Source: Gammaproteobacteria bacterium (GTDB taxonomy: Bacteria; Pseudomonadota; Gammaproteobacteria; Eutrophobiales; Eutrophobiaceae). Taken from it: a DNA stretch of 64,000 bases. Every line of letters starts with the position of its first letter. The first letter of the stretch is position 1. Below, in pieces: positions 20,865 through 22,754 of the stretch. A model generated the notes under the pieces. That model was given only the letters and a program-made list of their open reading frames with translations, was not told the DNA's origin and ran no database searches. The stretch spans positions 41 through 64,040 of the forward strand of contig JACVQI010000001.1 in assembly GCA_015661095.1 (NCBI GenBank), written 5' to 3'. The position numbers and the translations under genes are program-made.

Positions 20865-22754
20865 TCACTTAAATTCCAGGGACTCTATCATTCTGCCATA
20901 TCCCCACTGCAATCTGTAATCTTCCCGGATGCGCTCCTGCAATTGCTGTTTTCCGGCCTGCGCCTGCCCTTTTTCCCCCATACGGTACAACAGTTGTACT
21001 TCACTCAGTTTACGTGGAATGGTAAATTCTTTCTGCAAAGATTGCCGGATAAACATCAACCCATTGTTAGTATCTCCTGCATATAACGCCAGAGCGGACA
21101 AATACTCATAAAGATAGGCACTATCATTACTGAATTCAGGGTTATCGTTCAAGCGTTTGATTAAGGCGATTAATCGCGCTGTATCCACATTCGTACACAA
21201 TCCCTTCAGAACATTCAACACTATCTGATCCAGCATGACGGCTGTCCGTAATTTATCCGCCTGCGCACGGCCAGCACTTTCCATATATTCCATCCACTCC
21301 GCATCGGCTATGGTACTACGCAGCCTGCATCCTCTTATATTCAGCCTGTTTAAATAAGGATAAATATGGCTCGGGGCCAGGTTGATCAGTCTGGTTATCG
21401 TGGTTTCGGCATTTTCGATGTCATCATTAACCAGATAGAATTGCAGCAAATCCTGCATGGCACGCTCCGAGTGTGGATGCCGCCTGGCCCATTCGACAGC
21501 CTGTATACCGGGTTTTGACCACAGTTCTATTTCCACAATAGTCACCGCGATTACCAGCAAGCAATATACACCGGCGGCCATGTAAACCAGCCATTTCCGT
21601 TGCAGAAAATCCGCGGCCCTGGTCCCCAACCAGGCTACTAAAAAAAACAGTCCGAATGACGGCAGGTAATTCCGGTGCTCAAAATAAAGCTCCAGGTTGA
21701 GATAGGTTGACTCGAGCAGATGTCCACCCAAAAACCATAATACCGAGAAGCTGAAGACGGGGTATGTTTGTCTTTTTTTCAGCGCCAGCCAGAGCAGGCA
21801 AAAGATGAACAGAGCCGAGATTAATGTTACCGGTGGTGACCACAGGCTGGACGAAGTGGGGAAATCGTCGTGATAGAGGCCGAATGCTGCAGGGCGGGGT
21901 GCGACTATATTTTGCATATACTGCGTTACCACCACCAGTTCTGTCAGTACTTTCTGCCCCATACTGTAATCCTGTGACTGATAAGAACTCGCCACACTGC
22001 TGAAGTTAACGGCAAGATAGATGGCCAGGACCAACATCGGCAATCCTAAAAACAACCATTTCCACACCGCCAGATATTTATTAACGCCGGATTTTGCAAG
22101 TAACGTCCCTTCGATGATCAACAGATATAAAGGCAGCAAGATGCCGTTTTCCTTGGCCAGAATTGCCAGCACCGTGCAGACAATCACAACCATGCTCATA
22201 AACAACAATCGGCGCCAGTCATGATCAGAAGCAGACTGCAACCGGAAGTGGAGATAACCGACAACCCCGAGCAAGGTAAACAGCGTGGATACCTGTGTCA
22301 TCCGCTGCACGACATAGAGCGTGGTACTGATCTGTATGGGATGCAGCAACCAGAGCAAAGTGACAATGACAGACCACAGGAATCGACGGTTGTGCTCCCT
22401 GGTTACCAGTCCGGCAAGCAGGTTGCACAGTAAATAAACCAGCACACCGTTAAGCAGATGCAGGCCAATATTTACGAATTTAAATGCCGTGGGATTGGAT
22501 GGCCACTGCTCGTACTGGAACGCGAATGTTAATAACGACAGCGGCCGGCCGGAAGGACCGGCGAAGCCGGAGCCGAACACATATGCCCCATACCCATAGT
22601 CCTTGACCTGATCCAGATTCTGCAGATTGTAAAAATCATCCAGCAGAAAACGGCTGCCCAGGCCGGGTAAATAGATAAGCGTAGCAAGCAACAACAACAA
22701 CGGGAGGACAGTTGTTTTCAGGATAGAGCGGATATCGGGTGCTGCAGAATTCAT
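20865..22754 (-). CDS. Polytopic membrane protein with C-terminal TPR repeats; putative GT-C fold glycosyltransferase (TMTC/PMT-like)
   Basis: 629 aa ORF with about 11-12 transmembrane segments. A DD motif (FLLDDFYNL) sits in the first extracytoplasmic loop, as in GT-C enzymes. The C-terminal 200 aa or so are helical and TPR-like. The gene lies directly downstream of the pilin gene. Confidence 0.5.
   Translation of the reverse strand: MNSAAPDIRSILKTTVLPLLLLLATLIYLPGLGSRFLLDDFYNLQNLDQVKDYGYGAYVFGSGFAGPSGRPLSLLTFAFQYEQWPSNPTAFKFVNIGLHLLNGVLVYLLCNLLAGLVTREHNRRFLWSVIVTLLWLLHPIQISTTLYVVQRMTQVSTLFTLLGVVGYLHFRLQSASDHDWRRLLFMSMVVIVCTVLAILAKENGILLPLYLLIIEGTLLAKSGVNKYLAVWKWLFLGLPMLVLAIYLAVNFSSVASSYQSQDYSMGQKVLTELVVVTQYMQNIVAPRPAAFGLYHDDFPTSSSLWSPPVTLISALFIFCLLWLALKKRQTYPVFSFSVLWFLGGHLLESTYLNLELYFEHRNYLPSFGLFFLVAWLGTRAADFLQRKWLVYMAAGVYCLLVIAVTIVEIELWSKPGIQAVEWARRHPHSERAMQDLLQFYLVNDDIENAETTITRLINLAPSHIYPYLNRLNIRGCRLRSTIADAEWMEYMESAGRAQADKLRTAVMLDQIVLNVLKGLCTNVDTARLIALIKRLNDNPEFSNDSAYLYEYLSALALYAGDTNNGLMFIRQSLQKEFTIPRKLSEVQLLYRMGEKGQAQAGKQQLQERIREDYRLQWGYGRMIESLEFK

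Follow-up and report, generated by a model that had tools for sequence, protein, structure and literature searches.

The gene described here encodes a membrane protein of 629 amino acids (aa) and lies at 20865..22754 on the minus strand of a stretch of 64,000 nucleotides (nt) from a gammaproteobacterium (contig JACVQI010000001.1 of assembly GCA_015661095.1, positions 41 to 64,040), which we call the window. We think it probable that the product is an inner-membrane, periplasm-facing O-glycosyltransferase of type IV pilin, which receives a polyprenyl-phosphate sugar made by the GT2 enzyme encoded next to it. The protein consists of a membrane domain with a predicted GT-C glycosyltransferase fold and a C-terminal domain that resembles tetratricopeptide repeats (TPR); hence we refer to it as the GT-C/TPR protein or simply as the target. 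What the analysis shows directly is a predicted fold, a set of conserved motifs, a model of the topology, the linkage of the gene to its neighbours and the terminator that precedes it.

The open reading frame (ORF) had been put forward in a preliminary description of the window, made by reading the sequence, and it has turned out to be a real gene. According to the ORF list and its translation it starts with ATG and has its stop codon at 20865-20867. The number of full-length homologues exceeds 3,699; among the top-scoring 120, coverage of the target is 87-100% and the length, with one exception, 604-653 aa. In an alignment of 40 homologues (36-78% identical to the target) there are 46 invariant columns, which include D39, D40, G69, R70, K92, N95, H99, Q150, R151, M152, K201 and E202, and also Y279, P286, D296, E355, E359, H360, R361, N362, Y363, C476 and C520. 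The family is large: a profile of the membrane domain alone finds, counted as clusters at 50% identity, 62,897 at E <= 1e-3, 31,032 at E <= 1e-10 and 7,991 at E <= 1e-30. The public names of its members are 'hypothetical protein', 'tetratricopeptide repeat protein' and 'protein O-mannosyl-transferase', the last of which comes from automatic pipelines.

Single-sequence and profile searches gave no Pfam, NCBIfam or PDB sequence match for the membrane domain, and TPR matches were all that they returned. Neither the target nor the other members scanned match the Pfam models PMT (PF02366), PMT_2 (PF13231) and TMEM260 or the models Wzy_C, PglL_A and FimB, and PF08409, the DUF1736 model of the TMTC proteins, is not matched by any of them even at E <= 10. 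A faint full-length alignment of the target with DUF6056 (E 3.3 and 7.4) is not significant, and there is no Pmt or ArnT among the PDB sequence matches. Since no PMT, PMT_2, TMTC/DUF1736 or TMEM260 model is matched, we speak of likeness only: to judge from its sequence, the target resembles the PMT-, TMTC- and ArnT-like families without being a profile-level member of any of them.

The fold was approached through structure prediction. A full-length AlphaFold model of good quality (predicted local distance difference test score, pLDDT, 88.0; predicted template-modelling score, pTM, 0.86) gave mostly TPR proteins in a Foldseek search, with weak matches to STT3. Because the TPR proteins swamped this search, the membrane domain (residues 1-418) was modelled separately (pLDDT 86.5, pTM 0.89). 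With the separate model the ten best PDB matches are all GT-C enzymes, i.e. STT3 from the human and yeast oligosaccharyltransferase (OST), archaeal AglB, ArnT and ALG3, with template-modelling (TM) scores normalised to the target of 0.40-0.51 and probabilities of 0.97-1.00. They are followed by Pmt4, PglB, EmbB, DPY19 and AftA, while the transporters and G-protein-coupled receptors interleaved in the list have TM-scores of 0.11-0.21 and low probability. What decides the assignment is that the matches are exclusive to GT-C enzymes and have good coverage, not any single score. On this modelling evidence we assign a GT-C fold to the predicted membrane domain (residues 1-414, 21513..22754, minus strand, as are all features of the gene given below). 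The glycosyltransferase-like character claimed earlier is thus borne out by structure comparison, with ArnT and Pmt4 among the matches. Two other assignments, an O-antigen polymerase or ligase and a transporter, were considered and rejected on the GT-C fold and the missing Wzy_C match; a polymerase or transporter fold is what the preliminary description had named as a refutation of its reading, and the comparison went the opposite way.

The model, hydropathy and charge together give a topology of 11 spans with the N-terminus inside, the first membrane helix being residues 8-33 in the model. Outside are the loop with the DD motif (34-87), a KEN turn (201-203), the loops 250-308 and 344-365 and the C-terminal domain, and short basic loops (TRE, KRQTY and LQR) are on the predicted cytoplasmic side. 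The protein had first been described as having twelve transmembrane helices and a DD motif in the first loop. The loop stands, whereas the number of helices comes down to 11 by model and hydropathy; an odd count is needed because the DD loop and the C-terminal domain are both placed in the periplasm.

The C-terminal domain itself (residues 415-629, 20868..21512) is predicted to be periplasmic and forms 13 stacked helices in the full-length model. Its best Foldseek matches are PilW, PilF, a consensus TPR and the TPR domain of OGT, each with a probability of 1.00, and profile searches likewise hit consensus TPR proteins. Pfam TPR models find nothing significant in the target itself, yet they match 26 of 40 family members. 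In terms of structure, then, these repeats were rightly read as 'TPR-like'. Two cysteines that are invariant in this domain, C476 and C520, fit a disulfide in the periplasm, where both the location and the bond are predicted.

The motif that first drew attention to the protein, FLLDDFYNL (residues 36-44, 22623..22649, with D39/D40 at 22635-22640), does lie right behind the first membrane helix, in the first periplasmic loop. Every one of the 40 aligned homologues has D39 and D40, and the DD motif is therefore no chance match. The two residues are the predicted catalytic or acceptor-binding pair and would be the counterpart of motif M1 of the TMTC proteins and of the DDX motif of TfpW, a pilin glycosyltransferase to which we return below.

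Further likenesses to the TMTC proteins can be followed along the chain. TMTC1-4 have 11 membrane helices, lumenal TPR repeats and a long functional loop between helices 7 and 8; outer loop 1 contains the motifs DD and SHKSYRP(L), the KE(T/Q)xxT motif of outer loop 3 binds the donor phosphate and a metal, the DW motif in the loop between helices 7 and 8 binds the metal, and ERxxY in outer loop 5 binds the donor phosphate (PMC7801869). By inspection, the target has counterparts of most of these at DD 39-40, GRP(L) 69-72, KEN 201-203, HDD 295-297 (HDD/F in the family) and EHRNY 359-363. G69-R70-P71 (22542..22550), in loop 1, corresponds to motif M2 'SHKSYRPL', with G69 and R70 invariant and P71 nearly so. 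K201-E202-N203 (22146..22154), between helices 5 and 6, corresponds to motif M4 KE(T/Q), with K201 and E202 invariant. The long loop that joins helices 7 and 8 on the periplasmic side has a conserved part, Y279-x6-P286 ... H295-D296 (21867..21920), of which Y279, P286 and D296 are invariant; it occupies the position of the DUF1736 loop of TMTC, with its DW motif, and of the PL4 'YX6P...' motif of TfpW. Finally E359-H360-R361-N362-Y363 (21666..21680), in the loop between helices 9 and 10, corresponds to motif M7 ERxxY and is invariant at all five positions. Motif M3, RxD, is not evident in the target family when the alignment is inspected.

Of the TMTC/PMT-like architecture in the preliminary description, then, the loop-1 DD and the TPR-like domain hold up. 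The 11 helices, the loop between helices 7 and 8 and, by inspection, the apparent counterparts of M1, M2, M4, M5 and M7 agree with what is published for TMTC1-4; membership in the sense of a Pfam match is not supported. To judge from its conserved residues, the target is probably a functional GT-C enzyme, of the type that uses a monophosphate donor. In the model the putative active site, made up of D39/D40, K201/E202, D296 and E359-R361-Y363, most likely faces the periplasm.

We now turn to the neighbours of the gene. Upstream and co-oriented with it is pilA (22872..23330, minus strand), which encodes a type IVa major pilin of 152 aa (Pfam Pilin 1.5e-17, N_methyl 1.7e-9), the predicted acceptor. 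The end of pilA and the start of the target are 117 nt apart, and an intrinsic terminator lies between them (22823..22852, minus strand, AAAAAGGCCGCGTCAGCGGCCTTTTTTATT; z = -2.8 for the intergenic fold), with a hairpin GGCCGC-GUCA-GCGGCC followed by UUUUUUAUU. A consensus terminator scan missed this element, which was revealed by reading and folding the intergenic region; the gene does therefore follow pilA and its terminator directly, as had been stated. An equivalent hairpin and U-run stand between the pilin and GT-C genes in 25 of the 26 related loci that were checked. This conserved terminator fits a mode of expression in which the target is transcribed by partial readthrough, and a terminator-separated layout has also been described for the pilin accessory genes of P. 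aeruginosa (PMC11841053). About 100 nt 5' of the pilA start we read a sigma-54-type GG-N10-GC element, TGGCATCATAGCTGCT (23428..23443, minus strand), which by its sequence fits control by PilS/PilR and sigma-54.

The pilins linked to the target family have in common a segment of the alpha-beta-loop that is enriched in Ser and Thr, corresponding to mature residues 62-73 in the window, and we predict that these Ser/Thr residues of PilA, namely T62, T63, T67 and S68 of the mature pilin, are the glycosylation sites. TfpW reportedly modifies its pilin in the alpha-beta-loop region too and is said to have a restricted substrate range, both according to a paper of 2008.

How general is this arrangement? 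A scan of one genome per species gave 595 relatives, and of the 79 best loci kept, 78 are counted here; the one left out represents the window's own source. The window matches contig JAENIZ010000015.1, from the uncultured gammaproteobacterial bin CoA_2_bin.44, at 99% identity. A co-oriented type IV pilin ORF ends at most 700 nt upstream of the GT-C gene in 46 of the 68 loci that have at least 900 nt of upstream sequence; in another six a pilin lies up to 3 kb away in some other arrangement, and one has only pilR/pilS. On the other side, an orthologue of the adjacent GT2 (51-64% identical) starts within 1.5 kb downstream of the GT-C gene in 42 of the 69 loci with enough sequence. The trio of pilin, GT-C and GT2 genes stands behind pilS-pilR in the window, as it does in many uncultured Gammaproteobacteria. 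In Alcanivorax and in Stutzerimonas nitrititolerans it comes after a divergent pilB-pilC, with pilD present too in Stutzerimonas, where the GT-C gene overlaps the GT2 gene by 4 nt. Behind the trio of Acinetobacter lwoffii come genes for a dehydratase, a nucleotidyltransferase, a DegT aminotransferase, an ATP-grasp protein and a methyltransferase, together a nucleotide-sugar pathway for a modified amino sugar.

The same A. lwoffii locus (L082, JALGQY010000001.1) contains two divergent pilin loci side by side. One consists of a pilin, a 206-aa protein, FimB and an oligosaccharyltransferase of the Wzy_C/PglL type, the other of a pilin, the GT-C/TPR protein, the GT2 and the amino-sugar pathway; by gene content, both kinds of pilin glycosylation appear to be present side by side in this genome.

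Tandem GT-C/TPR genes, in two or three copies and sometimes with two pilin genes, are found in 15 of the 78 loci. Loci with tandem copies include L002, L014, L020, L021, L029, L040, L041, L054, L055, L059, L060, L062, L066 and L074. Two of these, L041 and L059, belong to Competibacteraceae and have two pilin genes and then two GT-C copies, which suggests that enzyme and substrate were duplicated together.

The GT2 gene (19982..20839, minus strand) encodes a protein with C-terminal membrane helices (Pfam Glycos_transf_2 2.1e-27). Its closest solved relatives are ArnC, an archaeal dolichyl-phosphate mannose synthase (DPMS) and GtrB, the alignment with GtrB spanning residues 3-272, and all of its solved relatives are polyprenyl-monophosphate sugar synthases. 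In NCBIfam it comes nearest to AglJ, a Dol-P-hexose transferase, PpgS and ArnC, with scores that in each case fall short of the cut-off of the model, e.g. 108.7 bits (3.5e-31) for AglJ, where the cut-off is 325 bits. AglJ starts the dolichyl-phosphate-linked oligosaccharide in Haloferax. We conclude that the GT2 is a predicted polyprenyl-phosphate sugar synthase whose sugar is not nameable from sequence. The neighbouring gene for such a synthase indirectly supports a lipid-phosphate-linked donor for the target.

Behind the GT2 the co-oriented array that had been described earlier is confirmed by Pfam assignments. It comprises a methyltransferase (19245-19970), a GT4 (17993-19240), a fusion of ADH and GFO-IDH-MocA oxidoreductases (15836-17977) and an AsnB-type amidotransferase (13886-15784), all on the minus strand, with gaps from the target onward of 25, 11, 4, 15 and 51 nt. 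These four genes may serve to tailor a sugar, or they may be the start of an adjoining Wzm/Wzt O-polysaccharide cluster. The GT2 is the only array partner of the target that is consistently kept; a GT4 orthologue comes next after the GT2 in 9 of 37 loci, a minority, and a methyltransferase follows in several.

The array bears on a different account of the target, that of an oligosaccharyltransferase or polymerase. Here a short glycan, built by the GT2 and GT4 on the lipid carrier and then methylated or tailored in some other way, would be transferred whole to pilin, or a chain would be extended by repeated transfers. AglJ as the best NCBIfam match of the GT2, the loci in which a GT4 or a methyltransferase follows, and the top fold matches STT3 and AglB, which transfer glycans whole, all speak for this account, as does the proposal that TfpW both polymerises and transfers (bioRxiv 10.1101/2020.04.19.049825). 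However, most loci with the GT-C/GT2 pair have no GT4, the AglJ match is far under its model cut-off, and the GT-C enzymes that have TPR or TMTC-type motifs move single sugars from monophosphate donors (PMC7801869). We consider whole-glycan transfer or polymerisation unlikely, although it deserves to be taken first among the alternatives.

The linkage to pilA bears on a second account, in which the target is a modifier of glycans that, in the manner of GtrC or ArnT, decorates O-antigen, lipid A/core or exopolysaccharide with a side-chain sugar in the periplasm, and its proximity to pilA is mere neighbourhood. A GT2 and GT-C pair is the classic layout of Gtr-type O-antigen modification (PMC11194591, PMC11127046), a Wzm/Wzt cluster is situated just beyond the array, polysaccharide genes come after the pair in Stutzerimonas, and some of the loci have no pilin nearby. 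Against this, the co-oriented upstream pilin is the most conserved neighbour besides the GT2 and recurs across pilSR, pilBCD and other settings. Moreover, the terminator-separated layout matches that of known pilin accessory genes, and in the characterised cases of TMTC and TfpW a TPR domain in a GT-C enzyme goes with the modification of proteins. Thus a glycan acceptor also seems unlikely to us, and it ranks second.

It is also conceivable that the target is a general O-glycosyltransferase of periplasmic proteins, similar to PMT or TMTC, with pilin as one target of many. The TMTC-like architecture and motifs would suit such a role, as would the very large family (7,991 clusters at E <= 1e-30 and 62,897 at E <= 1e-3) and the members that have no pilin linkage. 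The tight linkage to pilA, together with the co-duplication with pilin genes in Competibacteraceae and the restricted substrate range reported for TfpW, is what makes us regard so broad a specificity as improbable. A non-enzyme, be it an accessory or scaffold of pilus assembly similar to TfpY or FimB, a transporter, or an O-antigen polymerase or ligase, is highly improbable: several pilin accessory genes in this slot are non-catalytic (PMC11841053) and the pilus biogenesis proteins PilF and PilW are top matches of the TPR fold, but the protein has the GT-C fold with the full set of invariant acidic and basic residues in the active-site loops, no Wzy_C or FimB match, and a donor synthase as its conserved neighbour.

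For a pilin O-glycosyltransferase fed by the GT2, we infer what the acceptor and the donor are, which sugar is used, that a flipping step takes place and how the gene is expressed, and these parts would fit together as follows. On the cytoplasmic side of the membrane the GT2 would take a sugar from its nucleotide-bound form and place it on undecaprenyl phosphate, the lipid-linked sugar would be flipped across the membrane, and the GT-C domain would pass it to PilA, at Ser/Thr residues, either before the pilus is assembled or while this happens, with the TPR domain holding the pilin substrate. Expression of the target would probably be low and would depend on transcripts that start at a PilS/PilR- and sigma-54-dependent pilA promoter and read through the strong pilA terminator. 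Expression by readthrough would pair an abundant substrate, the pilin, with a scarce enzyme.

Several observations weigh against this interpretation. The Foldseek E-values are modest (1.6e-3 to 0.16), no sequence profile ties the membrane domain to any named GT-C family, and the TMTC motifs were mapped by eye instead of by scored alignment; this exact family is known here from sequences, models and gene neighbourhood. In 15 of the 68 loci there is no pilin gene and no pilS/pilR nearby. No dedicated flippase gene is adjacent, and the only GtrA-like module in the vicinity is fused to another GT2, about 6 kb upstream, a fusion that pairs with a TMEM260-like enzyme in related loci. Finally, the target borders an O-polysaccharide cluster, and polysaccharide genes also follow the GT-C gene in Stutzerimonas, which would allow for a glycan as acceptor, unlikely as we consider it.

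The genes around the target provide some further context. It is part of a run of twelve co-oriented genes on the minus strand, from pilS to AsnB, directly after pilA. At the head of the run are pilS (30788-32398) and pilR (29462-30787), both read from their translations. Three glycosylation-type genes stand between pilR and pilA. Just after pilR comes the GT2-GtrA fusion (28280-29380, minus strand; Pfam Glycos_transf_2 7.8e-37, GtrA_DPMS_TM 6.6e-17). That it might serve the target as a flippase or hub is speculative. Next is a fusion of a sulfatase/LtaS-like and a GDPD domain (25647-28277, minus strand; 876 aa) with a polytopic N-terminus, which might add or trim a phospho-form, e.g. glycerol phosphate, on pilin or its glycan. 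The third gene (23604-25637, minus strand) encodes a TMEM260-like protein of 677 aa (Pfam PF11028 1.8e-23; PDB 9rql 5e-30), a homologue of the human O-mannosyltransferase TMEM260 that has an EDD motif behind its first helix. A TMEM260-like protein is also found upstream of pilA in L009, L010, L013 and L067, and in L009 an orthologue of the GT2-GtrA fusion directly precedes it. This suggests that GT2-GtrA and the TMEM260-like protein are a second pair of donor synthase and transferase. A comparison of the membrane-domain profile of the target with the TMEM260-like protein gave no meaningful alignment (probability 2.8%), and therefore the two GT-C enzymes that flank pilA are not close relatives.

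On the far side of the array, window positions 231-13877 are taken up by an O-polysaccharide cluster of the ABC-transporter type with three GT4s and several methyltransferases. It includes Wzm (8506-9324), Wzt with a Wzt_C domain (9317-11062), a UDP-GlcNAc 2-epimerase (7011-8120), a heparinase II/III-like protein (3149-5515) and an ORF of 355 aa (11969-13036) that has no Pfam match. Genes similar to pilB, pilC and pilD, recognised by their N-terminal sequences, occur at 43365-47294 on the plus strand, about 20 kb from pilA; unlike the Pseudomonas arrangement, they are not divergent from it.

Glycosylation of pilin alters pilus assembly, surface properties and phage sensitivity. To our knowledge, only two types of system, TfpO/PglL and TfpW, have been characterised for the pilins of Gram-negative bacteria, and literature searches found no description of a pilA/GT-C-TPR/GT2 cassette. 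Tentatively, and with more doubt than we attach to the function of the target itself, we propose that the cassette of pilA, GT-C/TPR protein and GtrB-like GT2 is a widespread, unnamed O-glycosylation system dedicated to pilin. It would be a prokaryotic counterpart, possibly a relative, of TMTC, in which the sugar changes from lineage to lineage as the downstream sugar genes are exchanged, and in which enzyme copies arise together with variant pilins; selection by pilus-binding phages would be the likely driver and TfpW one branch, specialised in arabinose. The family occupies the pilin accessory slot of many Gammaproteobacteria, including cultivable Acinetobacter and Stutzerimonas. Such a result would not astonish a pilus specialist. 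If true, it would nevertheless widen the TfpW mechanism from a single-organism curiosity with one unusual sugar to a common system with exchangeable sugars, and it would make tractable organisms available for testing a pilin glycosylation system. It would also open up bacterial relatives for work on the way in which TMTC and other GT-C enzymes with a TPR domain select the proteins that they modify.

Of the known systems, the closest in description is TfpW. In group IV P. aeruginosa (Pa5196 and PA7, the PA7 protein being AAM52060.1) TfpW is encoded downstream of pilA and glycosylates the pilin; 11 helices are predicted for it, its first periplasmic loop contains a DDX motif and its TPR domain is periplasmic, and it adds oligomers of D-arabinofuranose, for which a phosphoribosyl pyrophosphate (PRPP) transferase, DprE1, DprE2 and a GtrA-like protein are needed (bioRxiv 10.1101/2020.04.19.049825). 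Genes similar to tfpW are found beside pilA in several other species (same source). Compared by this published description, the target has in common with TfpW the accessory-gene slot after pilA, which it also occupies in the 46 of 68 related loci, the predicted DD in loop 1, 11 helices and periplasmic C-terminal TPR domain, a Tyr-x6-Pro in the fourth periplasmic loop, and the presence of a GtrA-like module. The differences are equally plain. The full YX6PFX7P motif is absent from the target and from five diverse members, including those of Acinetobacter, Stutzerimonas and Alcanivorax; in all of these proteins the invariant Tyr-x6-Pro (Y279-x6-P286 in the target) is followed by a residue other than Phe and has no Pro at +9. 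The constant partner is a GT2 similar to ArnC, DPMS and GtrB, and no tfpX follows the target. A GT2 partner in place of the arabinose genes implies a different sugar.

D-arabinofuranose genes (PRPP transferase, DprE1 and DprE2) were not found when the 20 ORFs from 231 to 29380 were scanned with Pfam; by their N-terminal sequences the other genes of the window look like housekeeping and pilBCD genes, and an arabinose pathway could lie elsewhere in the genome. When members from Alcanivorax and Acinetobacter served as queries, no match bore the name TfpW and none came from Pseudomonas aeruginosa, and the published TfpW homologue WP_130134296.1 of Acinetobacter venetianus is not in the cluster look-up of ten Acinetobacter matches. 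Membership of the TfpW orthologous group, as a stated fact, was rejected on account of the incomplete YX6PFX7P motif and the absent arabinose genes. We suggest instead that the target would work like TfpW as an analogue, likened to it by description and not by alignment, without being filed as an orthologue.

TMTC1-4 provide the second comparison. With these proteins the target shares 11 helices, non-cytoplasmic TPR repeats, the DD in loop 1, the long loop between helices 7 and 8, by inspection apparent counterparts of RP(L), KE(T/Q), D-aromatic and E-R-x-Y, and a predicted polyprenyl-monophosphate sugar donor. It differs from them in having neither a DUF1736 (PF08409) match nor an evident RxD (M3), in its bacterial host, in its predicted substrate, which is pilin and not cadherins, and in a donor that we predict to be linked to undecaprenol and not to dolichol.

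GtrABC and ArnC/ArnT resemble the pair described here in that the gene for a GT2 polyprenyl-phosphate sugar synthase lies beside a GT-C gene, and ArnT is among the best fold matches. Those systems, however, modify O-antigen or lipid A with GT-C proteins that have no TPR domain, whereas the target has a pilin gene as its neighbour and no small flippase gene adjacent to it. With TfpO/PilO and PglL the target would share the glycosylation of type IV pilin, as predicted here, and tfpO is located in the same slot after pilA. Unlike the GT-C target, which has no Wzy_C match, these enzymes have the Wzy_C/O-antigen-ligase fold and transfer a whole glycan from a diphosphate carrier. Taken together, these comparisons place the target most likely as a pilin glycosyltransferase that is TfpW/TMTC-like but receives its donor in another way, drawn from a large family for which neither Pfam nor NCBIfam has a model.

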